Source: a virus
Strand: one strand, 5' to 3'
IMG/VR virus record: IMGVR_UViG_3300044691_000338
Span: 7,853-71,852 of that record
Length of the DNA: 64,000 bases
Under the pieces are notes generated by a model, which saw nothing but the letters and a program-made list of their open reading frames with translations, was not told the origin of the DNA and did not search any database. Positions 1 to 13,177 of this stretch are shown piece by piece. Each line of letters starts with the position of its first letter. The first letter of the stretch is position 1. The position numbers were made by a program, and so were the translations under genes.

Positions 1-2094
1 CTGATCCAGGGCCGTTTTGATCTGTCCGTTCGACCAGGCCTTATCGATGACCTCATCAGCCCGGCGCCGTGAATCATCCGTGGGCATGCCACCGCGGGTC
101 AGGATCTGGGTGTACGCCATCTTGTAGGCGTTCAGTGAATCGATTAGGCGAATGACCGCTTCGCCTCCGGTACCTTTCTCCGCCGCGAGCAACAGAGAAT
201 TGACCGTGGGAAATTTCGTCCGGTCGACCATATCGGAGGCGCGAAGAACCATCGGCGCGAACTTGCCCGCTTCCGCGATGCCCAGATCGATGCCGGCGCC
301 TCGAGTACCAAGCACACGTTCGGCGGCCAGGATGCCCATGAACTCGGCGGTGTTCGCCGCCAGGTCGGCACCAGACAGACCCTGCTCCTTGGCCAGTTTG
401 CCACGCCATTCGGCGATCTTGCGCATGCTGGCCTGATTGCGGCCCATGCCGACGGTGCCATGCCAGTCCCCGCGGAGGCTTTCCTCTGCGATCAGTTTGG
501 CCGAGTCGTCATCGATCGCGTTCGCGTCCTGCTTGCGCGCGGTCTCCTGGATCTTGGGATCAGCCCGCGCGATCTGCCGTTGTTCGGCGCGTTCCGCCTG
601 ATCGAGCGGGGTGCCGCGTTGTGTCTCCATGGCCGCGATGCGCTTGTCAGCGATGGACATAGCGTCTTCTTCGGCGGCCTGCCCGGGTGTCTTGCTCCCT
701 TCGGCGCGGGTGACCCCGAGGACTTTCCCCTCCATGGGCGTGCCATCGAGATTGAAATAGTGTCCGTCGTGAAACAGTGCGTCCTGCCGCACGCCGTTGA
801 CGGTCACTGGCATCGGTTTGCCGGCGGCCTGTTGCGCCGCGACCCGCGCGCCCGTGGTCGCCCCCGCCCGATCGGCGGCGCGCTTGTCCTCGGCCGCGAG
901 CGTGCGACGGTCCAGTTCCGCCTTTTCGTTGGGATCAGCCAGATTTACGGGCCGACCTAATTCCTTCTCATAGTCGGACCGTACAACATTGGTCACCGCG
1001 TCCCGGTCCTGATTGGCCGCGCTGGGCGCGCGCGGACCGGCGAGTTTCGTCGAGTGACCCTTTGGCGCGTAGGGCTCGCCATTCATGTCCAGGCTTTCGC
1101 CCGTACCCTTGCGATGCTGATAGTCGTTGCCTTCGGCGTCAGTCAGAATTTCCCAACCCTTGGTTGGATCCTGAAGGGTTTTGTTGGTCGCCCCGGCGAC
1201 CTGACGCATCCGCTCAAGTTTGACCTGATTTTCCCCCCAGTCCGAATGGTCTTTGCGGATCCCCGCTTCGATCGCGGCGTTGTCTGCGTCCTTCTGCGCA
1301 CCTGCGCCGGTACCTACCTTCGTGAAGCCGCCCTCTTCTTCCGGAGGAACGGACGAGCCATCACCGTACTGCAACCGCTTTCCAGGTTCCGCATTCGGGA
1401 AGGCAAATATGAGCCTTCCCTTTGAATCCTTGCCGATGGCGGCGCCCGCACGGCGGTTAGTGTCTTCGTCGCGCTTCTCCTGCCGTTTAATCCTCTCTTC
1501 CTCAATTCCTCGCTGCTTTTCCTTATCGCGCTCGGTTTCCCACTGCTGATAGGTCTGCACATGCCCGGCCGCTTGGACAGGATCGAACTGGCGCGGCCAA
1601 CTTTTCTGCTGTTCCTCAGAAAATCCGCCACCTTTCGCAAGACGCTCCTGTCCCTCCGTCTGAGCCTGCTGGCCGATGGCGCGCGCTGCCTGTTCGTCCT
1701 TACCGTCCGCGAGGGCCTGTTTGTATGCCGTGTAGGCTTCGTTCGAGACATCCTTGGTCAGTTCGTACTGCTTGGCGAACGTGTCCGTCTTGTATCGGTC
1801 CATCTGCAGCTTGTGTTGCTGCATCTCCAATGTGTTCTGCTGCAATTTCATCCCGGCCGCTGGATCGACGCCCATCACCCTGGACAGCGTGTCCGGCTTT
1901 GGAGCCCCCGTGGCAGGGTCGATCGCGTCCGGTGCGCCGAGGATGTCGCGCAATTTGTTGGCGCGCTCCACCTGCTGCTTGAACTGTTGCAGTTGAACAA
2001 GATTGTTCGCGTCCGAAATCGCCTTGCCGAAGTTTGGTCCGACGTTCGGTGTCGGCTGAAAACTCAAGGGGATTTGGGCATTGACGCCGGACAT
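1..2094 (-). CDS. Large DNA ejection/internal virion protein (P22 gp20/gp16 position), partial; runs off the left edge
   Basis: Not in the ORF track. Manual translation from ATG at 2094 (MSGVNAQIPLSFQPTPNVGPNFG...) is in frame with position 1; helical Q/A/K/E-rich; directly follows the gp7-like gene. Confidence 0.75.
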   Translation of the reverse strand, partial: MSGVNAQIPLSFQPTPNVGPNFGKAISDANNLVQLQQFKQQVERANKLRDILGAPDAIDPATGAPKPDTLSRVMGVDPAAGMKLQQNTLEMQQHKLQMDRYKTDTFAKQYELTKDVSNEAYTAYKQALADGKDEQAARAIGQQAQTEGQERLAKGGGFSEEQQKSWPRQFDPVQAAGHVQTYQQWETERDKEKQRGIEEERIKRQEKRDEDTNRRAGAAIGKDSKGRLIFAFPNAEPGKRLQYGDGSSVPPEEEGGFTKVGTGAGAQKDADNAAIEAGIRKDHSDWGENQVKLERMRQVAGATNKTLQDPTKGWEILTDAEGNDYQHRKGTGESLDMNGEPYAPKGHSTKLAGPRAPSAANQDRDAVTNVVRSDYEKELGRPVNLADPNEKAELDRRTLAAEDKRAADRAGATTGARVAAQQAAGKPMPVTVNGVRQDALFHDGHYFNLDGTPMEGKVLGVTRAEGSKTPGQAAEEDAMSIADKRIAAMETQRGTPLDQAERAEQRQIARADPKIQETARKQDANAIDDDSAKLIAEESLRGDWHGTVGMGRNQASMRKIAEWRGKLAKEQGLSGADLAANTAEFMGILAAERVLGTRGAGIDLGIAEAGKFAPMVLRASDMVDRTKFPTVNSLLLAAEKGTGGEAVIRLIDSLNAYKMAYTQILTRGGMPTDDSRRRADEVIDKAWSNGQIKTALDQ

Positions 2095-4664: not shown

Positions 4665-5174
4665 TTACATTCCCCAATAAACGATGGCTTTGACCATAGC
4701 CATGCTGACGACACCGCCACCAGAGGGCGTGACGTTCAGCACATTACCGAACAATGACAAATCAGTGCCGAGCAGGATCGCACCAGGAGGCTTTGCGTCG
4801 GGCCCTGGATTTCCGGACAGCGTGCCCGCCGGGATGGCCAGCGCCGCCAGCGTGCCACCATTGAATGACAGTGACGGATCGACCACCTGCGGCTCTGGTG
4901 GCGCTGGTGCGTTCGTGCTGTTGCCCAGGATAGTCAGAGGCGGGCTGTTCGCCAGGGTGACGGTAGACCCGGAATTGATCGTGCCAGGTGTGATCACGCT
5001 GTTCGGCGCGATGGTGACCGGCTTGCTCAAGGATCCCGAATTGACACCGAGCGTGTTCCAGAACCGCCACCATGTCCGGTTGACCACCATATTGCCGGTG
5101 GGCTTTCCGTCACCGCCGATTTCCTGTGTGCCGACGGGCTCTTTTGGAGTCGGGATGTTCGGCGATTGCGCCAT
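4665..5174 (-). CDS. Putative tail-associated virion protein
   Basis: N-terminal P..PV...RTWWRFWNTL motif typical of the gene following gp10-like hubs; P/T/G-rich. Confidence 0.5.
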   Translation of the reverse strand: MAQSPNIPTPKEPVGTQEIGGDGKPTGNMVVNRTWWRFWNTLGVNSGSLSKPVTIAPNSVITPGTINSGSTVTLANSPPLTILGNSTNAPAPPEPQVVDPSLSFNGGTLAALAIPAGTLSGNPGPDAKPPGAILLGTDLSLFGNVLNVTPSGGGVVSMAMVKAIVYWGM

Positions 5175-5650
5175 CAGTCCGGCTTCAGGATCGCGTCATC
5201 GACCTTGGCCGCGTCTGTCTCATCGGTCGGATGGATGCAGAACCAAACCGCGTCGGTATGAGCAAATAGCGTGTGATGCTCGCCGGCTTTGATCGTTAAC
5301 GCACGCGGACCAATCATCTGCTGCGATTGGTCGCCCACCTGAAGCGTGATCACTCCGCTCGCCAAAATGGAAATATGATCGTAGGGGTGCGCGTGCGAGA
5401 CCATCCGAAAGCCGGACGGGATATGCAGTTCCTTCGCGTAGACGCCCTTGGCCTGGTCCTGCCCGACGAAGTGATGGTGGATGTTCGCCGCGGGGAAGAC
5501 GTCGGCGAAGGGGCGCATAGGTGGAGCTTCATCTTCGCCATATGATGGTGGCGCACCGGCCGCGCGCATCCTCGAGTACGCCGCCCTTTCTTCGGCGGGC
5601 GTCTTGGCGTTCCAATAGGCGGCAGTCGCCTCGTCGAGTTCGATGGTCAT
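5174..5650 (-). CDS. Cupin-fold protein
   Basis: GVYAKELHIPSG...SHAHPYDHISILASG...GEHHTL cupin metal-binding His motifs. Confidence 0.8.
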   Translation of the reverse strand: MTIELDEATAAYWNAKTPAEERAAYSRMRAAGAPPSYGEDEAPPMRPFADVFPAANIHHHFVGQDQAKGVYAKELHIPSGFRMVSHAHPYDHISILASGVITLQVGDQSQQMIGPRALTIKAGEHHTLFAHTDAVWFCIHPTDETDAAKVDDAILKPD

Positions 5651-6213
5651 ACGTCACCTTCGATTTTACGAAAGCACAATATGAGGACGATCCGCTCCGA
5701 TTCCCCATCGTTGCGGACGGAGTGCGGGATCAGGTTGTCATGGTGCCACCCCTCGCCGGGCTTCCAGACCATGCTCTCGTCTTCAACTGTGTTCACGCAC
5801 CGGTCGTTGCCGCGGAGGACCACCCAAACCTTGGTCGAATAATATCGAGCATGCCAGGCCACGTCGTCATCGTGCTCGTACACGCGGCACCCCGGCGGTA
5901 TCCGGGTCATGAGCACGCCGCCGAACTCCAGCGGCACGTCCAGCGCGTCCATCACGGTCATCAGCACGTCAGGCAGTGACGGCAGTTGCCGATAGGCGGG
6001 CCACCACACGGACTTGTGCGGCTTCTGGGAGAACTCCGGTTCGAGCATGGCCTCGGGTGAGGCGTACCGAATCCAGAGGTCGGAAGTTTCTCGATGCGGT
6101 GAATTACCGAGGCGCCGCTCTGGTCGATCGTTCCATAGGCTCGGCTGCGCATCGAGTTCGGCCAGCAACGGCGCGACGTCGATGTCCTTGGCGATCAATT
6201 TGAAGTGGCTCAC
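5647..6213 (-). CDS. Aspartyl/asparaginyl beta-hydroxylase family 2OG-Fe(II) oxygenase
   Basis: TRIPPGCRVYEHDD (HxD), WHHDNLIPHSVRNDGESERIVL (distal His and 2OG-binding Arg). Confidence 0.85.
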   Translation of the reverse strand: MSHFKLIAKDIDVAPLLAELDAQPSLWNDRPERRLGNSPHRETSDLWIRYASPEAMLEPEFSQKPHKSVWWPAYRQLPSLPDVLMTVMDALDVPLEFGGVLMTRIPPGCRVYEHDDDVAWHARYYSTKVWVVLRGNDRCVNTVEDESMVWKPGEGWHHDNLIPHSVRNDGESERIVLILCFRKIEGDV

Positions 6214-7943
6214 GAGACGTCAACCTCCGCGTCGATCAGAGCGATTTTGAACGGATCTGTGCTGCTCAACTCGAATATACGATCCGAGCCGCTGAACCGC
6301 GATGTCGCTCCAAGCCGGTTCGCCTTGATGGTGAACGCGGTCTCTCCAGACCGCCCGACCGGCAGCATGCGATAGTTCGACCAAACATGCCCGCCATCGT
6401 CCGACCAGCGCAGCATCACCTGCGGGTTCGTCCCCTGCGGCACGCCGGCGCCGGTTTGCATCTTGATCGCGAGATAGCTGTAGCGATCGGCCGCGACCGT
6501 GGTGGCGGGCAGCGCGCGCCAACGCCTGATCCATTTCCGCGGCGTCCCATTGTCCAGATATGTGGCCGGATTGAACCCGTAGAGGTTCCCGCTGCGATAA
6601 TCACCGAGCACGCCTTGCCCCGGCCCGCGCGTGCTCCCGCTGGTGACTGACCCGGAGGTCCCCGGGGGATCGGTCGCGCCATGGACCAGAGAGCCGCCGC
6701 TCTCCGCGAAGGGACCGCCGCGGCCGTTGTTGAGCGCGAAACTGGCTGGCGCACCGGTATTGGTCAGGAACACCACGGGAGAGACGCCAAACGGGAGTTC
6801 GCCATTGACCCCGAGGTTTTGCGCGCCTCCCGTGGCCGAGATGAATTTCCGGCGATTGGCGGCCTGGGTCAGATCGACAAAGGCCCCGGTGTTCGAGAAC
6901 CACAACTCGGCCATGGTGGCGGAAACGACAGGGCCAACCGGGATCCAATAGACCGCGTGACCCGTGAACTGAGAATTCCCGACGGGTCTGGTGCCATCAG
7001 ACGAAATCGCCTGTACGCTGGGAATTGTATCGCCGGAGAGCGGAGGCAAGTCCTCGAATCCCGTCGCCAGTGTCCAATGCCATGCCTGCCCTGCGCCGAC
7101 TGATGATCCACGGCCGACCAGATGAAGCCCATCAGCCGATATACCATCGGCACTGCTGATCGTTTGGGAAAACGGGTTAGCCAATAACGCGGTCGTGCCG
7201 CTTGAGTTTACAAAAATTCTACCAGACCCACTAATCTCCATACCCCCGGCTATGACGGTGCCCGCGCTAGAAACCGAAAATGCCTGGCCCGTTGTTGCGC
7301 CGCCGGTAAATGGGATAGCGACCGCGGGACCGGCGGATGTCCACATGACAGGGGTATCCACTCCAAGTCCGCTGCTCACCCCGACGATCACATTGCCATC
7401 GGCGGACACCGCCAGAGCAGTGCCGCTCTCATCTCCCGACAGAATACCGAGCTGCACCATTCCGCCACCCGAAGTCCAAACAAACGGAAATTCAAAAACC
7501 GGCCCAGGCGGCCCACCGATAAGGTATCCTGGCATGTTGCTGGACGTGCCGACGATCGTCGTGCCATCCGCCGATATCGCGTTGGCCTGTGAAGCCTGCC
7601 CGGTCCCGAGAAAGCCCAGGCCAACCATGCCGCCGCCCGAGGTCCAGCGGAACGCTTCGCTGGTGGCGAGCCCAGCTCCATCCGGCAGTGATCCGCCGCC
7701 GTCACTTCTGCCGACAACGATGGTGCCGTCATCGGAAACCCCGGCTGCTTGCGATGTTGTGCCGGATGCCAGGAGACCGAGCGATGTGAATGTCGCACCA
7801 GTCCAACGAAACGCGATCGGGGAACCGCTGCCATCGAAATCCGCTGACCCGACGATGACCGTTCCATCAGCCGAGGCGGCGAACGCCACGCTGAATAGAC
7901 CGCTGGGGGGAACCCCCATATCGACCGCGACCCAGACCGTCAT
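6210..7943 (-). CDS. C-terminal part of a P22 gp10-like tail hub, fused behind HAF-repeat propeller and half of a LamG-like domain
   Basis: Repeats A..VSADG..IVG...AFRWT..GGMV.LG; AELWFSNTG...ANRRKFIS; C-terminal GDYRSGNLY...PQVMLRWSDDGGHVWSN...RIFELSSTDP of gp10 family; ATG 7943 overlaps upstream TGA (ATGA). Confidence 0.8.
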   Translation of the reverse strand: MTVWVAVDMGVPPSGLFSVAFAASADGTVIVGSADFDGSGSPIAFRWTGATFTSLGLLASGTTSQAAGVSDDGTIVVGRSDGGGSLPDGAGLATSEAFRWTSGGGMVGLGFLGTGQASQANAISADGTTIVGTSSNMPGYLIGGPPGPVFEFPFVWTSGGGMVQLGILSGDESGTALAVSADGNVIVGVSSGLGVDTPVMWTSAGPAVAIPFTGGATTGQAFSVSSAGTVIAGGMEISGSGRIFVNSSGTTALLANPFSQTISSADGISADGLHLVGRGSSVGAGQAWHWTLATGFEDLPPLSGDTIPSVQAISSDGTRPVGNSQFTGHAVYWIPVGPVVSATMAELWFSNTGAFVDLTQAANRRKFISATGGAQNLGVNGELPFGVSPVVFLTNTGAPASFALNNGRGGPFAESGGSLVHGATDPPGTSGSVTSGSTRGPGQGVLGDYRSGNLYGFNPATYLDNGTPRKWIRRWRALPATTVAADRYSYLAIKMQTGAGVPQGTNPQVMLRWSDDGGHVWSNYRMLPVGRSGETAFTIKANRLGATSRFSGSDRIFELSSTDPFKIALIDAEVDVS

Positions 7944-10516
7944 GGGACAGTGCTCACATGCCAAGGTTGGGTGAAGGACGGCGCGATCGGGTTGGTCGAA
8001 CTCCAGGAGATAGCCGTCGGCGTCAGCAAGGTTTCCACCAAAGACCCAGCGACGATCGTATTGGCGTAAACCTGCAATTGCTGCGTCGTCGTGTCGATCG
8101 AGATCAGCAGGTTCACCCAGGCCGCCCAGTTGGTGAAAGCATAACCCGCGCCAACGATGGGCGCGTTGCTCATATCGAACGCGGCAATGGAGAGTTGCGG
8201 CGTGCCGAGGGTATCGTTCTCAATCTTGATGAGCAGACCAGGATTGGTTGACCCCAACGTGTCATCGGTCTGGTTCGAGAAATAGATGCCAGAACCGTCG
8301 GCGTCCGGAAGATCGACCCAGATGGACAGCAGCGCCGTCGAGACAGCGGAAGGCAAGCCCGTGAGCCCGGTCCCGGTTTGCAGCACCTCTGGTGAGGTGA
8401 TCGTCACCGATTTCGGGTCATACGCGGAGAACGTGGTCGACGGCTGGGCCGAGAGTTTGAACGGGGTAAAGAAATTGCCCCAGTGCCGTTTGATCTGCCC
8501 GTTATCGAGCGCGCCAAGCCGCGTCCAGATGGGGAAACCGGCCAGTTTTGAGGACGTCTTGTCGTACTGCCACGTCTTGTCCGCCTCTGGGAAGGTGATC
8601 ACGTAATAGACGTGCTGGCCTTCCTGCCGCGCGTAGGCGATCGCATCGCCGAGATTGGGATACTTCTGAAATTCCGCCACCAGCGCCTGGGTGGAAATCG
8701 GCACCGCGGAATACCCGCTCGCCTTCACAACGATCCCTTCCCCTTGGTCGTTGCGGGACAGCCAGATCAGTTCCTCTTCAGCGAGCGCCACGGAAAACGG
8801 CGCGATGCAACCGGATTCGATGTGGTTGCTGGAAAGAGGACCGAAGGGAAAATTCGGAAGCCCCTGATCATTCCAGATTTCCGTGTTTTTTTCCTTGATG
8901 ATGTAGACCTCATCATGGATCACACCGAGGGTGACGCAGTTGTCCGGCGATTGGTTGGCCACCCCGAAATTGAGCGGTTGCCAGGTCGAGAGGTCCTCCT
9001 GGTCCGAGGACGCGATATTCTGCGAGTTCAGGAAGACGAGGACGCCGAATCCGTCAACGACACCGCCCATGACGGGATTCGGAAACGGCATGTCGATCGG
9101 CACCAGACCGACGAAAGCGCCATATGTCGGCGAGGTCAGCGTGAAGCCCGCTCCGGATCCCGTGGTCGATTTCTGGGTGAACGAGATCGCCGGGTCGGAA
9201 ATTGCCCCCGGAGAGGTGATCGTGAACCCGGTCACACTCCCTGTCGGGCCAACCCGGTTCACCAGATAGGTCGCATTGACGCCGCCACCTGTGATGAAAC
9301 CGGCCACGCCAACGACATAGCCATGGCCACCGGTATGCACCGCGAAGCCCGAGATAGGTCCGGCGGCGGCGATATCGACGGTGAACCCGGTCCCGACATT
9401 GGTGGCGATTCCTGGCGCCGCTTTCGTCGTCGCCGCGGCGGTGATCGCGTAGGCCGTGCCGCGGTTGAGCAGAATGAATCCGGTGACGACTCCACCCCCA
9501 ACGGAGGTCACCCGATAGACGGCATCCTGACTGCCGACCGTGATCAGGCCGGTGTCATTGGCCGCGTAATTGGTGCCGCCGGAAGTAATTGAAGCGGCGG
9601 TGATTTCTCCCGCGACCGCCGTGATGTTGATCGTCAGGCCGCTTCCGCCGCCGGGATGCGGCTGAATGTTCGTCGTCGCGACGTTGCTCGCCGTCGAATA
9701 CCCAGTGCCCGCGTTGGGCAGGATGAAGTCAGTCACCGGGTTGTTCGCGACAGCGGTGACCGTCGCCACCGGAAAGGCGCTCTGAAAGCCAGAGGACGCC
9801 TTCAGGAGAATGGTGTCGTTGACCGCGTACAGGCCGCCAGCGGGATTTACGGTACCGATCACCGGCCCGACCACGCCACCAGTGAGAGGCAATCCGCCCG
9901 GCACCAGCCATGCCCCCACGCCATCGACGATCAGCAGTTGCTTCTTGTTCTGGAACATCGAAACCGGCGTTGTCTCGTCACCGATCGTCCCGCAGAGGGT
10001 ATGAATGCCGTTCGCGGTGATGCTGATTACCTCGGGGCCGGATACGACGTAGAGAACGTCGTTCAGTGGCAGACCGCCGCGGCCAGGACCAAGAAAATCA
10101 TATGTCGGCGATGTCAGGATAAACCCGGTCCCGGTCCCTGTCGTCGAGAATTGGGTGAAACCAGAAGGTATGCCGGACGAGTCGCCTGGATCGATGATAT
10201 CGAACCCGGTCACAGCCGAACCGGTCAGCGTGGTCACTCTGACCCGAGGGGCACCGAAGTTCCCGCCCTCAATCGGGATCAGCACAATTACATCACCGAA
10301 AGCATATCCGGTCCCGCCTGATCCGACCGCGCCTCCGATCAGCCCGACACGGCCAACCTGATCAAGCAAATCGAGGCCGGACGCGCCGAACAGAAAGCCG
10401 GGAACGATGCCGTCGCGGGTCTCGATCACCTCAACGCAGAGGTTGAGCGCGTCTGAATCTCCAGCGTCGCTTGAATTTTGTGTGGCAAATCCACCTAAAA
10501 TTGGCGACTTCGCCAT
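7940..10516 (-). CDS. N-terminal/core part of a P22 gp10-like packaged-DNA stabilisation (tail hub) protein with inserted G/T-rich repeat modules
   Basis: MAKSPILGG...NLCVE N-terminus; core DGFGV..SSD...NFGVANQSPDN...TEIWND.G..FPF...GCIAPFS...YYVITFP.ADKTWQYD; gp10 C-terminus absent. Confidence 0.85.
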   Translation of the reverse strand: MAKSPILGGFATQNSSDAGDSDALNLCVEVIETRDGIVPGFLFGASGLDLLDQVGRVGLIGGAVGSGGTGYAFGDVIVLIPIEGGNFGAPRVRVTTLTGSAVTGFDIIDPGDSSGIPSGFTQFSTTGTGTGFILTSPTYDFLGPGRGGLPLNDVLYVVSGPEVISITANGIHTLCGTIGDETTPVSMFQNKKQLLIVDGVGAWLVPGGLPLTGGVVGPVIGTVNPAGGLYAVNDTILLKASSGFQSAFPVATVTAVANNPVTDFILPNAGTGYSTASNVATTNIQPHPGGGSGLTINITAVAGEITAASITSGGTNYAANDTGLITVGSQDAVYRVTSVGGGVVTGFILLNRGTAYAITAAATTKAAPGIATNVGTGFTVDIAAAGPISGFAVHTGGHGYVVGVAGFITGGGVNATYLVNRVGPTGSVTGFTITSPGAISDPAISFTQKSTTGSGAGFTLTSPTYGAFVGLVPIDMPFPNPVMGGVVDGFGVLVFLNSQNIASSDQEDLSTWQPLNFGVANQSPDNCVTLGVIHDEVYIIKEKNTEIWNDQGLPNFPFGPLSSNHIESGCIAPFSVALAEEELIWLSRNDQGEGIVVKASGYSAVPISTQALVAEFQKYPNLGDAIAYARQEGQHVYYVITFPEADKTWQYDKTSSKLAGFPIWTRLGALDNGQIKRHWGNFFTPFKLSAQPSTTFSAYDPKSVTITSPEVLQTGTGLTGLPSAVSTALLSIWVDLPDADGSGIYFSNQTDDTLGSTNPGLLIKIENDTLGTPQLSIAAFDMSNAPIVGAGYAFTNWAAWVNLLISIDTTTQQLQVYANTIVAGSLVETLLTPTAISWSSTNPIAPSFTQPWHVSTVP

Positions 10517-11475
10517 TAAGCCACCTCTCTACGCCGCACAGGTGGACGCCTGTTGTTTGCTTGCTGTTTGGCGTCAGCCCAGATGCAATTCTTCGGCGAG
10601 TACCCCAGATCGTTGTTCATTCTTTCCAAGGACAATCCTTGTCGAGGACGTATTCCCATGTCCTCGATAAAGTTACGATAGCTGGTCCAGCGAGGACAGA
10701 CCGTGATCCCGCGACCGGCGTATCCTGGGAACAAAGCCTTATTCTTCGGATCACACCTCCGGATCATCCCCTTCCACACATGGTACTCGAGTGGCTTCAG
10801 ATTGAGTTTCCATAGAGGGAGCGTCGTTTGCCCGGCGAACAGCGCGGTCTTTTTACAGCCACATGACTTAGTCAACCCCTCCCGCAAGGCCGTGCCCGAA
10901 ACTACCCGTTCCACCCCACAATCACATTGGCATTTCCAAAAAGGTCCGCCTTTTTTGGGCGCCGAACGATCCAGCGAAATCGCGAACCAATATCCAAACC
11001 TACGACCACTTAGGTCGATACGTGTTCGGGTTCCTGTATTTTCGTACTGTCGACAACCGCAATTAGTCGATAAGCCCCTGACCAATGAACTGCAAACAAC
11101 AGGCGTTTCAGTTCCGCAATCACAGCGGCATAGCCATCTCGCCTTCTGATGTGCGCTCACTGTCGAACGGCCCATGACAAGCCACATACCGAACCGTTTT
11201 CCGATAAGGTTAGCCCGTTTTTCTCTAAGTGTTTCGTGGACCCTACAACCACATGATTTCGATTTTCCGCTCATAAGAGAGGTCGTGAGGACCACTCGTT
11301 CAGCACCGCAGTCGCACCGACACAGGAACCTTCCTGTCGGCCGATACTCAATGACAGTCCATTTATCGAACTTTTCCCCCGTGTGATCGATCCAAGAAGG
11401 ATGCATGTGATTCCACCCCATAAAAGAGGGGAAATTCTTAACTGAATCTATCGAAAAGTCAAGGGTTTCCGCCAT
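10516..11475 (-). CDS. Free-standing HNH-type homing endonuclease with three Cys-rich repeats
   Basis: 3x G.KF/RFG.W...CxCDCG...SCGC; C-terminal YAGRGITVCPRW..F..DMG.RP..LSLERMNNDLGYSPKNCIWA...QANNRR; AT-richer than neighbours. Confidence 0.85.
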   Translation of the reverse strand: MAETLDFSIDSVKNFPSFMGWNHMHPSWIDHTGEKFDKWTVIEYRPTGRFLCRCDCGAERVVLTTSLMSGKSKSCGCRVHETLREKRANLIGKRFGMWLVMGRSTVSAHQKARWLCRCDCGTETPVVCSSLVRGLSTNCGCRQYENTGTRTRIDLSGRRFGYWFAISLDRSAPKKGGPFWKCQCDCGVERVVSGTALREGLTKSCGCKKTALFAGQTTLPLWKLNLKPLEYHVWKGMIRRCDPKNKALFPGYAGRGITVCPRWTSYRNFIEDMGIRPRQGLSLERMNNDLGYSPKNCIWADAKQQANNRRPPVRRREVA

Positions 11476-11477
11476 AA

Positions 11478-12215
11478 TTAGTTTCTACCCGTTCCGCGAT
11501 CCGAATAAATATTATAGACAACATTCCCACGACTGATCAATTCCGGGTCGAATATTGCGATTTGAGTCCTCATGTTCGTCCGCTTGATGTTCGCCTTCGA
11601 CTCGCTGGCCGCCTTTACTGTGCTGGGGTCGAGCGCCGCATCCTTGAAATACGGCTTCATCGATACGGCGAGGTTCGCCGTGTAGGCCAACTTGTAACCG
11701 GGCGGGAAACCCACGTCGGTATCGAGCGTCTGAAAGTCAGTCAGTTGCTGATAGGACAGGAACGAGCAGGTGTATCCGGTCGTTGGCGTCGGCCAGAGAT
11801 TGATGATGCCCAGTGGAAATTGCGGATCGTAGAAGAGGTGATCGGGAAGGTTGCTGTCAGCGACTGCTGTCGTGGTCCAGTTCCATTTCAGTTGGTCAAC
11901 CACGTCGATCAGATAGCGGTTCAGATTTTGGTCCAGAAGGTATGCCGCGCCGGGTGCATCGCTCACTCGAAGCGGACGGGGACCGGTGATGTCTGCGCCA
12001 ATGCCGCCCACCGTGTACTGGAACTTGTTCGGGATAAGCGTAAACGTCTGCGTCAGCCACGTGAAACAGGCGAGACTTTCGTTCGACCAGGAATCGTTCA
12101 TGTCATTGAGGATCGACAGGGCTCGCGCCATATCGGGCTGACTCGCATCTTCACCTGCGGCATAGATGCGGAGCATTTCGAACGCATCCTGGATCATGGT
12201 GCGCGCGGTGGTCAT
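11478..12215 (-). CDS. Head-to-tail adaptor, P22 gp4-like (copy 1)
   Basis: MTTARTMIQDAFEMLRIYAAGE...ARALSILNDMNDSW; FPPGYKLAYTANLAV; upstream of gp10. Confidence 0.8.
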   Translation of the reverse strand: MTTARTMIQDAFEMLRIYAAGEDASQPDMARALSILNDMNDSWSNESLACFTWLTQTFTLIPNKFQYTVGGIGADITGPRPLRVSDAPGAAYLLDQNLNRYLIDVVDQLKWNWTTTAVADSNLPDHLFYDPQFPLGIINLWPTPTTGYTCSFLSYQQLTDFQTLDTDVGFPPGYKLAYTANLAVSMKPYFKDAALDPSTVKAASESKANIKRTNMRTQIAIFDPELISRGNVVYNIYSDRGTGRN

Positions 12216-13177
12216 CAGTTCGGCTTCTGCGGGTTGGTTGGGAGGACGAACCGGTTCATCAGGGCGCGACTGTTGATCGACTGGTAGCGCAGGAAGGCGC
12301 GCGACGCGGCGGCGGCCTGGATAATCATTGGGTCGATCTGGGCATCGCGGAAGTAGGTTTTGACCGATGCCGCGAGATTTTGCCGCAGCGCGTCATAGAC
12401 CCCGACGGCGAGATCGAAGCTGCTGTCCAACGTCGGGAAATTGAGGATGCGCTGCCACGCCTGGAAAGAGAGCGTCAGGGCGGCGTTGGGTGTCGGGAGG
12501 AGTTTGATCAGTCCCAGAGGAAAGGACGGCCGGTAATACAGCGTGTTCGGCTGGCCAGCGGAGGGTGTGTAGGCCGCGAGGGACTGGAACTCGATCATCG
12601 AGACCACCTGCACAGGCGCGCCGATCACGCTACCCACGAAGGTCGAAGCCGTGATGGGACCGCTGCTCGCGGTGATGCTCAGTTGAAACCCGGTTCCCTC
12701 GCCCGGCTGCGGGCCGGCTGCGGCGGTCGCCGCCGCCGCATTGGTCGTGTAGGTTGTCCCGTTGTTGGTCAGGCTGTAACCCGCCACGGCGCCGCCTGGG
12801 ACGATCGCGGTGATGATGTACGTGGCGTTGGCTGAACTGACATTGATGATGCCGGTGTCGTTGATTTCGTAGCCGGACCCTCGTCCTGGGCTTGAGACGT
12901 TGGCGGCGTCCTCGCCATAGGCGATCGTATAGGGGCGGGACGCGGTGACATCGGCACCGATCGAGCCGACGGTGTATGTGGGCTTGGCGATCGTGAGCCC
13001 CAGATTGATCTGATTGATGCTGTTGACGAAGATATTTTCCGCCGCCAGTTCATCCATCAGCGCGTTGAGCACCAGGAGGCTGCGCGCGGCATCGGCGGCA
13101 TCGAGGTTTTCGCCCGGGGAGAACACCCCGAGCATTTCCAGCGCGTCCTGGATCAGGTCCCTGGCGGTCGTACTCAT
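12215..13177 (-). CDS. Head-to-tail adaptor, P22 gp4-like (copy 2) with an ~80-aa inserted module
   Basis: MSTTARDLIQDALEMLGVFSPGE...ARSLLVLNALMDEL; aligns by eye with 11478..12215 (YTVG.IGAD.T..RP, YY.P.FPLG.I.L.PTP, NLA.S.K.YF.DA..DP). Confidence 0.8.
   Translation of the reverse strand: MSTTARDLIQDALEMLGVFSPGENLDAADAARSLLVLNALMDELAAENIFVNSINQINLGLTIAKPTYTVGSIGADVTASRPYTIAYGEDAANVSSPGRGSGYEINDTGIINVSSANATYIITAIVPGGAVAGYSLTNNGTTYTTNAAAATAAAGPQPGEGTGFQLSITASSGPITASTFVGSVIGAPVQVVSMIEFQSLAAYTPSAGQPNTLYYRPSFPLGLIKLLPTPNAALTLSFQAWQRILNFPTLDSSFDLAVGVYDALRQNLAASVKTYFRDAQIDPMIIQAAAASRAFLRYQSINSRALMNRFVLPTNPQKPN

Follow-up and report, generated by a model that had tools for sequence, protein, structure and literature searches.

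Two overlapping genes of an uncultured soil podophage, here called A and B, encode what are likely the two halves of a single P22 gp10/Sf6 gp8-type tail hub (nozzle), set in a P22-like structural module. They lie in a window of 64,000 nucleotides, the whole stretch of DNA that we analysed (positions 7,853 to 71,852 of the IMG/VR virus record IMGVR_UViG_3300044691_000338). The reading frame is divided at the same point in most relatives that carry an inserted β-sandwich, the sandwich is itself interrupted by a nested and variable head domain, and insert-free, fused and split forms of the hub occur within one family.

Both open reading frames are on the minus strand, exactly where the earlier note had placed a gene split in two and coupled by ATGA, and all the motifs quoted there are present: RHWGNFFTPF (at residue 677), LSIWV (730) and WVNLLISIDT (800) in A; AELWFSNTG (345), ANRRKFIS (362), NNGRGGPF (405), GDYRSGNLY (447) and RWSDDGG (512) in B (Table 1). 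A contains an N-terminal extension, the first propeller blades, arrays of a small repeat-type domain, the hub core and the N-part of the sandwich; B opens with the HAF propeller head, followed by the sandwich C-part, the final propeller blades and a C-terminal extension. The junction letters are ...GTC CCA TGA, with the ATG of B overlapping as ATGA, an arrangement that suits translational coupling of A and B. This overlap recurs in the related loci L002 and L004, while L003 has TGAgATG and L005 has an extra gene between A and the B counterpart (B'). Among 97 B-like proteins beginning with M, 48 start with 'MT', as expected from an ATGA overlap followed by C.

Table 1. Features of the split hub, in coordinates of the window; residue ranges refer to the products of genes A and B.
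Feature	Position	Strand	Basis
Gene A, tail-hub N-terminal chain, 858 aa	7940..10516	-	ORF and translation
A 1-55, hub N-terminus (MAKSPILGGF...)	10352..10516	-	in 44/80 IMG/VR loci (tblastn) and in A-like proteins
A 56-145, extra copy of ~90-aa repeat-type domain	10082..10351	-	sequence comparison
A 216-486, repeat-type domain array between phrog_578 positions 115 and 149	9059..9871	-	gap in phrog_578 matches
A 487-690, hub propeller core up to RHWGNFFTPF	8447..9058	-	phrog_578 149-332; tblastn in 80/80 IMG/VR loci
A 691-858, sandwich N-part, ends ...QPWHVSTVP	7943..8446	-	35 cluster representatives in 1.84 billion proteins
ATGA junction, A stop TGA overlapping B start ATG	7940..7943	-	
Gene B, tail-hub C-terminal chain, 577 aa	6210..7943	-	ORF and translation
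B 1-336, head of seven HAF repeats, predicted β-propeller, variable cassette of the family	6936..7943	-	
B 337-440, sandwich C-part (AELWFSNTGAFVDLT..ANRRKFIS..NNGRGGPF)	6624..6935	-	
B 441-577, last hub blades and C-terminal extension, Asp-box-like RWSDDGGHVWS	6213..6623	-	phrog_578 342-470

The hub family profile phrog_578, which has 486 positions, is shared out between the two chains. In a profile search, A 487-678 matched positions 149-332 (E 1.7e-45) and B 442-577 matched positions 342-470 (E 2.7e-13), the latter bearing out the proposal that the last ~130 aa of B are gp10-like; positions 1-64 had no match in A or B. Searching the whole record matched A and B co-linearly, with A ~150-200 corresponding to positions 65-115, positions 149-332 found at E 9.7e-41 and positions 342-475 found in B at E 1.4e-16, and the same phrog_578 search detected no second hub copy in the 71.8-kb record. 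In our local Pfam copy, PF11134 was hit neither by A or B at E<=1 nor by the relative P0102 at E<=0.1; a precomputed table assigns this family to P0001 and nearly all relatives.

A profile of the A family matched the PDB chains 9vyg_M ('Stabilization protein', E 2.6e-11) and 7eeq_1 (E 2.6e-6), A alone matched the cyanopodophage hub structures at E 2e-4, and a B profile matched residues 367-408 of 7eeq_1 at E 0.043, along with sialidase Asp-boxes. The fold comparison with solved hubs used a single relative, P0151, whose model has a mean pLDDT of 61.7; its top Foldseek matches were 9vyg_M (7.4e-13), 7eeq_1, 7sg7_S (Sf6 gp8) and 8eap_D (P22 gp10), at low TM-scores of 0.16-0.38. By tblastn, B matched 34 GenBank phage records, annotated as stabilization protein, head closure Hc3 or tail tubular protein B, and every match fell within B 443-577. 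The only Pseudomonas phage found in this search was PAE2, through the ordinary C-terminal part.

The gene order is also P22-like: TerL, portal, scaffold, major head protein, two adaptor paralogs, hub and ejection protein. The adaptor paralogs occupy 11478-13177 (phrog_12985/637), with an HNH gene between adaptor and hub in the window; the adaptor adjoins the hub gene in L002, L004 and L005. The P22 gp10/Sf6 gp8 hub (packaged-DNA stabilization protein; 'head closure Hc3' in PHROG) has the same family profile and the same gene position after the head-to-tail adaptor. Known P22/Sf6-type hubs are single chains of ~470 aa without a sandwich or head insertion, and P22 gp10-type hubs are hexameric rings with one polypeptide per protomer; here, in contrast, the protomer consists of two polypeptides totalling 1435 aa, with three kinds of insertion (repeat-type domain arrays, the sandwich and, nested within it, the HAF propeller). 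The array at A 216-486, which is shared with unsplit relatives, has weak matches to phrog_460 and phrog_6005, and A 230-309, 307-390 and 397-437 match residues 91-179 of an adaptor paralog at 37-47% identity. The extra repeat copy near the N-terminus of A is present in P0124 and not in P0102 or P0129, and the first residue of the hub core is 486 in P0124 and 398 in P0129.

The β-sandwich sits between the two hub parts, as A 691-858 plus B 337-440, and is interrupted by the HAF propeller. Its insertion into the hub, proposed in the earlier note as that of a LamG-like domain, is borne out by insert-free relatives: in P0102, P0104 (741 aa) and 76 of the 80 best IMG/VR loci, one frame runs from the core straight into the C-terminal part, and in P0102 and P0104 the RHWGN and GDY..NLY segments lie ~20 residues apart, close together as the note had stated for one-chain homologues. 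The name is less secure. The inserted sandwich is probably ConA/LamG-like, and 'LamG' itself is a language-model lead only: in the Atlas, P0107 505-770 scores 0.90 to Laminin_G_3 (PF13385) clusters, which account for 20 of 30 hits, with 135-143 of 256 features in common, which is below the usual count for true Laminin_G_3 members. Pfam LamG, in our local copy, was hit neither by A or B at E<=1 nor by P0053, P0137, P0151, P0153, P0154 or P0102 at E<=0.1, and no LamG chain appeared in the Foldseek top 50 for the whole P0151 model. In that AF2 model, the region of the A sandwich part is all-beta with a pLDDT of 82-96.

Relatives with other arrangements confirm that the propeller is nested. P0107 (906 aa) is a one-chain hub with an uninterrupted sandwich. 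P0053 also has an uninterrupted copy, which aligns with A 798-819 through its residues 191-212 (E 7e-5) and with B 349-427 through its residues 253-327 (E 6e-8). Twelve proteins (P0137, P0153, P0154, P0156-P0160, P0173, P0184, P0185, P0187) hold the sandwich and a nested domain in one chain. The split itself falls where the nested domain begins, as had been suggested: 27 of 33 A-like matches end within two residues of the A end, as do, within -9 to +4 residues, 24 of the 35 cluster representatives from the exhaustive search. Of the 120 B-type matches listed, 101 keep the sandwich C-part and 100 have the split form, and the four IMG/VR loci with the insert (L002-L005) are all split at the same place. 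Judging by these sequences, many uncultured relatives share the two-gene hub with a head. A tree of 50 core-plus-sandwich rows needs seven changes between split and fused forms, at least four of them forced by well-supported (starred) branches. Such repeated interconversion suggests that the split is selectively near-neutral and not a functional innovation.

Alternatively, the real gene could be continuous and the apparent split an indel from sequencing or assembly or, in a dead phage, a pseudogenising frameshift of recent date. The B frame is open for ~90 codons upstream of its ATG, so that one indel could fuse the frames, and fused one-chain relatives exist at 55-63% identity; that upstream stretch, however, translates as arginine-rich noise. 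Contigs from runs X2, X3 and X4, which represent two further soil studies, cross 7940-7943 intact: the X2 contig has no differences over 7500-8041, the X3 contig (depth 72.5) differs by 38 substitutions and, at 7834, a single in-frame deletion of 3 bases, with no indel at the junction, and the X4 contig covers 7597-7979 without gaps across it. The substitutions in X3 fall mostly on third codon positions, in the B frame in the B region (10 of 12 listed) and in the A frame in the A region (14 of 20), the bias thus changing frame at the junction. The closest relatives (P0003, P0004, P0123 and P0124, 83-98% identity) share the stop and start, and the common stop of the 24 cluster representatives weighs on the same side. 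Intact contigs, the conserved stop and start and this frame-specific bias largely refute an indel, to which we give almost no credence.

Programmed frameshifting or stop-codon readthrough, producing a fused A-B protein alone or beside the separate chains, is likewise very improbable. At C CCA TGA a proline tRNA could slip by -1 from CCA to CCC, with ATG next in the B frame, and the A stop is TGA in all five loci examined. This conservation is uninformative because the ATGA overlap forces a TGA stop, and reading past the TGA would stay in the A frame, not the B frame, in all four loci in which B follows directly. Nor is there a conserved slippery motif among the loci: L002 has T CCA TGA, L004 has C GCA TGA, in L003 (ACC TGA G ATG) B lies in the other frame offset, and in L005 an entire gene separates A from B'.

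If two separate chains are made, they are predicted to join in trans. When A 480-858 and B 335-577 were modelled as a truncated 1:1 pair, the ipSAE values were 0.91, 0.91 and 0.92 against 0.17 for the best of three controls, with 312-325 contacts, a partner pLDDT of 77-78 and agreement between runs in at least 93% of contacts. Of 80 solved complexes, 58 reach the mark used, as do 2 of 110 mismatched pairs, counts that are only rough here because our own alignments were used. In the model, A 727-735 pairs as a strand with B 343-351, and A 692-736, 800-830 and 852-858 touch B 339-437. The sandwich part of B is disordered when folded alone (pLDDT <50 at 339-352; ~70-77 with almost no secondary structure at 353-423) and is confidently paired with A in the complex model. 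The idea that the hub is assembled from two chains through a split domain thus stands in silico, for this truncated pair, and complementation of A by B is modelled only. Part of the high score may be the model's memory of one-chain hub structures and sandwich folds. Split-gene halves tend to pass such a complex-model test.

It is conceivable that A alone is a complete hub and that B is a separate fibre or receptor-binding protein docking through a hub-like C-terminal domain, since B is laid out like a receptor-binding protein, with a variable head and a conserved anchor, and since a head-like protein X is a separate gene in L005. We regard this as highly unlikely. A lacks phrog_578 positions 342-475, which are found in every one-chain hub and of which B is the sole holder in the record, and the C-terminal 137 residues of B directly follow the core in one-chain relatives. 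The complex model further sets B 444-473 against A 630-686. In the Sf6 hub, as described in PMC9728967, an interrupted six-bladed propeller carries N- and C-terminal extensions that pair to form the adaptor-binding domain, which also argues against a hub made of A alone. By analogy with Sf6 gp8, the N-terminus of A is expected to pair with the C-terminus of B as an adaptor-binding apical domain.

The head of B contains the roughly seven HAF-type repeats that had been reported at its start: a regular expression counts seven S-x-D-G-x3-V-G repeats at B 24-314, and the TIGR02913 match, at 36.1 bits (E 4.6e-9), exceeds the curated cut-off of 22.65. AF2 predicts an all-beta structure for B 1-336 with pLDDT mostly >90, and its top Foldseek matches are TolB and WD40 propellers (e.g., 2w8b_A, E 1.6e-9). 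At this position, 25 of 95 B-type relatives have HAF repeats and 8 have fn3, one has Big_9/cadherin, one has F5/8 type C (discoidin), and the others carry an unnamed domain. Heads measure 81-533 aa and include no fewer than four named domain types; the flanks on either side share 55-98% identity. A variable head between conserved flanks is a pattern typical of host-range determinants, a circumstantial indication, and we infer that the head is most likely a module binding the host surface (glycans).

A different role for the head within a genuine two-chain hub is possible, if rather unlikely: it could be an accessory adhesin that attaches reversibly to slime, cell-wall polymers or soil particles, or a purely structural decoration, with a downstream fibre making the specific contact. 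HAF repeats have no known ligand, and a literature search joining 'HAF repeat' and 'phage' found nothing. Downstream, the protein encoded at 5174-5650 matches families named 'tail fiber adhesin/short tail fiber' (phrog_24280, E 5e-18); a further downstream gene encodes a protein of 440 aa that is rich in glycine. Other members carry fn3 and Ig-like domains, which are often weak general adhesins. On the other side stands the host-range-like pattern, circumstantial as it is, of a head that is the most variable part of an otherwise conserved module.

Our proposed route to a host-binding, two-chain hub is as follows. An ancestral one-chain hub would have gained the conserved sandwich between two propeller blades, and a loop between adjacent sandwich strands would have become the docking point for a variable head, here the seven-repeat HAF propeller. 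The reading frame would then have been broken exactly at the head start in most members, this phage included, leaving chain A with the N-terminal extension, the first blades and roughly two-thirds of the sandwich; the head, the final sandwich strands and blades and the C-terminal extension would come from chain B. The ATGA probably couples translation and would favour A and B amounts of ~1:1. The chains would complement each other by strand pairing in both sandwich and propeller, and six A-B pairs would form the hub ring under the adaptor, the sandwich acting as a constant socket that holds six exchangeable heads at the tail tip. The 6+6 stoichiometry, the radial display of heads and their receptor binding are inferred steps of this proposal.

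We tentatively extend the proposal to a possible though still doubtful reading, in which the conserved split sandwich would be a socket dedicated to exchanging receptor-binding heads, as cassettes, directly on the essential hub. Heads (HAF propeller, fn3, discoidin, cadherin-like, and unnamed domains of ~215 and ~395 aa) would be swapped by recombination between two conserved stretches, the 3' end of gene A and the sandwich C-part of B, and whether the incoming module has its own start codon would decide between a two-chain and a fused hub. Host range would then be set at the hub, possibly without P22-type tailspikes. If true, nature would here have arrived at a plug-and-play design in which a part of the virion has protein-fragment complementation built in.

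By sequence, the closest solved structures are the cyanopodophage hubs of Pan3 ('stabilization protein', 9vyg_M) and Pam1 ('needle head' gp8, 7eeq_1), each with six chains per deposited entry; these are single chains of 442-446 aa without insertions. 'Evolved' Dit proteins of siphophages, in which carbohydrate-binding modules are inserted in the baseplate hub, are similar in that an essential, conserved ring protein of the tail tip displays inserted binding modules; they differ in fold, in phage type and in being one chain, and we know of no nested second-level insertion among them.

The architecture is less unprecedented than the earlier note had implied, for a heterodimeric split nozzle has already been solved. 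According to the cryo-EM account of the Pseudomonas podophage A1002 (PMC13730344, PLoS Biol, Nov 2026), the nozzle-rope gp39 and the nozzle-base gp42 reconstitute one nozzle. There too, one nozzle is spread over two proteins, with platform and propeller complemented by strand addition, a likeness that holds here in silico only, and gp39 (C-terminal platform and blades) carries extra fibre-attachment domains, much as B carries its head. From the same account, the differences are that the break in A1002 lies in the propeller and platform themselves, whereas here it lies inside a nested accessory sandwich; that the extra part is a 300-angstrom rope docking separate fibre dimers, whereas here it is a globular head; and that the gp39 and gp42 genes are not adjacent, whereas A and B overlap. 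Unlike what is described for A1002, fused and split forms coexist in one family here.

If confirmed, the hub described here would be a second, independent and far more widespread heterodimeric nozzle, an arrangement so far represented by one cultured phage, and a case of natural fragment complementation in virion assembly. The at least four forced changes between split and fused forms indicate that an essential propeller ring tolerates repeated cutting into two chains. For annotation, this explanation carries a warning: soil-virome proteins of 320-780 aa named 'HAF family' or 'hypothetical' would be hub halves. Phage engineers would also gain, if the two-chain hub is confirmed, a compact scaffold on which to exchange receptor-binding modules. 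The usual view of P22-type podophage hubs is of conserved single-chain adaptors whose only task is to hold tailspikes; in this family, the hub itself would carry a hypervariable head through a constant socket domain.

The two hub genes lie in a P22-like late module on the minus strand of an IMG/VR virus record of 71.8 kb that is rated 92% complete (the window is its bases 7853-71852) and whose runs are labeled as soil metagenome. The order of the module is large terminase, portal, scaffold, major head protein, two head-to-tail adaptor paralogs, HNH endonuclease gene, A, B, small cupin-type genes and DNA-ejection protein; the portal in the window matches phrog_156 (E 1.6e-131). Genes A and B overlap by ATGA, and the coordinates, this overlap and all quoted motifs were found as the earlier note had them. 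The profile of P22-gp10-type hubs (phrog_578, 486 positions) matches three co-linear pieces across A and B, the last of which bears out the claim that the C-terminal part of B is hub sequence. Because there is no further phrog_578 match anywhere in the whole record, the last quarter of the hub is present only in B.

Features of the hub locus and hub-profile matches (genes in window coordinates, profile pieces in residues)
Feature	Position	Strand	Details
Gene A	7940-10516	minus	858 aa
Gene B	6210-7943	minus	577 aa
phrog_578 65-115	A ~150-200
phrog_578 149-332	A 487-678		E 1.7e-45
phrog_578 342-475	B 442-577		E 2.7e-13
Head-to-tail adaptor paralogs, tandem	11478-12215 and 12215-13177	minus	phrog_12985 / phrog_637 Ad3
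HNH endonuclease gene	10516-11475	minus	phrog_374, E 3.6e-82; three Cys-rich repeats; between adaptor genes and A
Asp/Asn beta-hydroxylase-like gene	5647-6213	minus	PF05118, E 2.9e-12; directly after B
Cupin protein	5174-5650	minus	after beta-hydroxylase-like gene; PHROGs label 'tail fiber adhesin'

The nearest solved structures by sequence are those of the cyanopodophages Pan3 (9vyg_M, profile E 2.6e-11) and Pam1 (7eeq_1, E 2.6e-6), both six-chain hubs. PF11134 was absent from our local Pfam scan, which gave only sub-threshold noise for A and B, yet a precomputed table lists it for A and its relatives. With phmmer, B had no match in the PDB; no near-identical DNA turned up among GenBank phages when the locus was compared by megablast, and exact peptide patterns of B retrieved no close relatives from IMG/VR; relatives there were obtained by a scan with a B-family profile. 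At RWSDDGGHVWS (B ~510-522, within window 6213-6623, minus strand), this profile matches the Asp-box of bacterial sialidases (E 0.2-0.8), which would fit a BNR-type propeller blade in the hub.

In the close one-chain relatives P0102 and P0104 (741 aa), RHWGN... and GDY..NLY are ~20 residues apart, in agreement with the short spacing given in the earlier note, and core and C-terminal part lie in one frame, <100 bases apart, in 76 of the 80 best IMG/VR loci (B-family profile). In the window, the same two points are kept apart by three parts: A 691-858, B 1-336 and B 337-440. Only 35 cluster representatives of A 691-858 were found in 1.84 billion proteins, and B 337-440 is conserved in 101 of 120 proteins among the matches listed. 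Sequence comparisons show that A 691-858 and B 337-440 together make up a single domain, a beta-sandwich. P0053 carries an uninterrupted copy, in which residues 191-212 correspond to A 798-819 (E 7e-5) and residues 253-327 to B 349-427 (E 6e-8); another occurs in P0107, a one-chain hub of 906 aa, and both parts are adjacent in P0190 and P0192. In P0151, they surround a nested domain of ~400 aa in one chain, and both are all-beta in the AF2 model (pLDDT 82-96 and 70-92). The proposal of a domain inserted in the hub, with a second domain nested within it, is thus upheld by the insert-free P0102 and P0104, the uninterrupted P0107 and the nested P0151. P0190 (912 aa) and P0192 (442 aa) end in ...VVQYRG without the hub C-terminal part; the sandwich thus constitutes a separate domain family that also occurs outside hubs.

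The insert had also been called LamG-like. The insert itself stands, as a sandwich that is all-beta in the P0151 model, and the name is only a lead. Pfam scans gave no LamG match, and the top 50 Foldseek hits of the whole P0151 model, dominated by hubs and large propellers, contain no LamG chain. In the Atlas, P0107 505-770 scores 0.90 to Laminin_G_3 clusters (20 of 30 matches), with few shared features, and Foldseek of the B model against BFVD was uninformative: its matches were a mix of phage and giant-virus proteins, some of them propellers and others labelled LamG or gp10, that superposed poorly. In two B-type proteins, P0005 (681 aa) and P0071 (669 aa), an extra repeat-type domain of ~95 aa interrupts the last hub blades after ...MQTGAGVP and before ...NPQVMLRWSDDGG, which gives this hub a fourth site of insertion.

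The break at the start of the nested domain, as first proposed for the window, recurs in relatives. Among 33 A-like matches, 27 stop within +/-2 residues of the end of A (...W-H-x-x-x-V-P), three are fused (both parts in one chain), P0150 and P0151 extend past the nested domain as far as the end of the sandwich, and P0152 goes on for another 91 residues. An exhaustive search gave 35 representatives: 24 end at the end point of A, seven are fused hubs with a nested domain, two have an uninterrupted sandwich and two are of other form. In P0150 (1080 aa) and P0151 (1074 aa), more distant hubs, the sandwich N-part is followed by a nested domain of ~400 aa and the sandwich C-part, after which the chain ends in ...APCCSTQ. 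As these chains stop at the sandwich C-part, they break elsewhere, after the sandwich, and their last blades must be encoded elsewhere. In 100 of the 120 B-type matches listed, the sandwich C-part is preceded by 81-533 N-terminal residues that do not belong to the hub. The first residue is M in 97 of 100 proteins examined (99 B-type and P0107), and 48 of these 97 start with 'MT', which is what an ATGA overlap with C as the next base would encode.

All four insert-carrying IMG/VR loci among the best 80 are split, with an ATGA overlap at the junction in L002 and L004 and TGAgATG in L003. A conserved frameshift signal was considered and rejected on comparing the junctions of these loci. In L005, the A-like gene and a short, nearly headless B' of 278 aa (5872-6708) are separated by a 344-aa gene (4850-5884), whose product gave nothing significant in Pfam, and the head may be a free protein in this three-gene version. 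For 13 A-like/B-like pairs, the longest contigs are equally long, consistent with a shared contig.

Contigs from two further studies cross 7940-7943 with no indel there. The contig of run X2 is identical across 7500-8041, that of X3 (depth 72.5) differs by 38 substitutions and an in-frame deletion of 3 bases at 7834, and that of X4, over 7597-7979, has five differences and no gap; the contig of X1 is identical and may be the source sample. The 32 listed X3 substitutions favour third codon positions of the gene in which they lie: those of B's frame for 10 of 12 in the B region, and those of A's frame for 14 of 20 in the A region. Hence, purifying selection switches frame at the junction. Upstream of its ATG (window 7944-8215, minus strand), B's frame is open for ~90 codons across the end of gene A, and its translation is arginine-rich noise. 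We rejected this stretch as evidence of a frameshifted fusion and regard it as a chance open frame in GC-rich DNA. On the basis of assemblies, relatives and neighbouring loci, the split is real.

The joint complex suggested in the earlier note was modelled with ESMFold2 as one A fragment (480-858) and one B fragment (335-577), with alignments that we built ourselves (25 and 30 rows). Three runs gave an ipSAE of 0.91, 0.91 and 0.92, against 0.17 for the best of three controls, with 312-325 contacts, of which the runs share at least 93%, and a partner pLDDT of 77-78. Among 80 solved complexes, 58 attain this mark, as do 2 among 110 mismatched pairs; these counts are only roughly valid here. Since halves of split genes tend to pass through their likeness to one-chain folds, the model speaks for compatibility of the chains, not for binding. 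In the modelled sandwich interface, A 692-736, alternate residues of A 800-830 and A 852-858 contact B 339-437, with the tightest pairs between A 727-735 and B 343-351; in the propeller interface, A 630-686 contacts B 444-473. Folded alone, B has a confident head and a pLDDT <50 at 339-352 and 424-471, the pattern expected of an incomplete domain. In the Sf6 hub, N- and C-terminal extensions together make an adaptor-binding domain (PMC9728967); by analogy with this pairing, a third contact, of A 1-55 with the C-terminus of B, would be expected.

The head (B 1-336) is predicted to be a HAF propeller, as the earlier note had it: its seven HAF repeats (TIGR02913, with 36.1 bits where the cut-off is 22.65) form a confident all-beta domain in AF2, which matches TolB and WD40 propellers in Foldseek. 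In a scan covering 95 of 100 B-type sequences, the domain before the sandwich C-part is HAF in 25, fn3 in eight, Big_9/cadherin in one and F5/8 type C in one; the remaining heads are unnamed and include classes of ~215 and ~395 aa. The flanks of the head are 55-98% identical; the head position is where this module, conserved elsewhere, varies. Variation of this kind between conserved flanks typically marks a host-recognition cassette, which is the predicted role of the head. The head may instead be an accessory adhesin, with specific contact made by a separate downstream fibre; we know of no ligand for HAF repeats. Overall, the observation and most of the interpretation in the earlier note held; the LamG fold, the hexamer and receptor binding by the head are its putative parts.

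Several neighbouring genes deserve mention. The HNH endonuclease gene has a local GC of 0.54 against ~0.61, and looks like a mobile insertion because the adaptor gene directly adjoins the hub gene in L002, L004 and L005. Residues 91-179 of the second adaptor paralog form a ~90-aa repeat-type domain of the kind arrayed in chain A (37-47% identity to A 230-437); thus, one small domain has spread into several tail-neck proteins. The GTG start of the beta-hydroxylase-like gene overlaps the stop of B (ORF coordinates), and a hydroxylase of virion proteins within a tail module would be unusual. In L003, ORFs with closely similar C-terminal ends come after the B-like gene.

Whereas P22 gp10 and Sf6 gp8 are single chains, the hub here consists of two. 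Among 50,697 GenBank phage genomes, 34 records match B (annotated as stabilization protein, Hc3 or tail tubular protein B), none of them outside its last 135 residues. Our literature search of article texts turned up no gp10-type hub that carries a nested sandwich or an inserted HAF domain; the only related case was the heterodimeric 'split nozzle' of the Pseudomonas podophage A1002, recently described by cryo-EM (PMC13730344). PhiGT1 (PMC10386132) was rejected as a split hub, as that paper concerns two tubeA genes. In A1002, a truncated gp42 is completed by gp39, which supplies the C-terminal platform and blades and also bears a fibre-docking rope (PMC13730344). The present system differs in that its chain is broken within a nested accessory domain, its two genes overlap, and it has a globular, exchangeable head as the extra part; fused, split and three-gene versions also coexist in the family.

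A search for longer proteins found eight hubs whose single chain contains the five segments in the expected order (P0137, P0153, P0154 and P0156-P0160), and the exhaustive search added four further, more distant fused hubs. Some fused forms share their nested domain type (...IAQLVVPSD...) with the start of split B-type proteins such as P0062 and P0101. We built a quick maximum-likelihood tree on the core and sandwich N-part with 50 rows (35 split, 12 fused, three other) out of 74 candidates; the 24 omitted, including P0107, were fragments or had no long match to both parts. This tree needs seven changes between split and fused states, at least four of them forced by starred branches, and resolves neither the root nor the direction of change. 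A two-chain podophage tail hub with a two-level domain insertion is real, conserved and fairly widespread, and the repeated changes make the split a recurrent state, not a single accident, which is apparently well tolerated.
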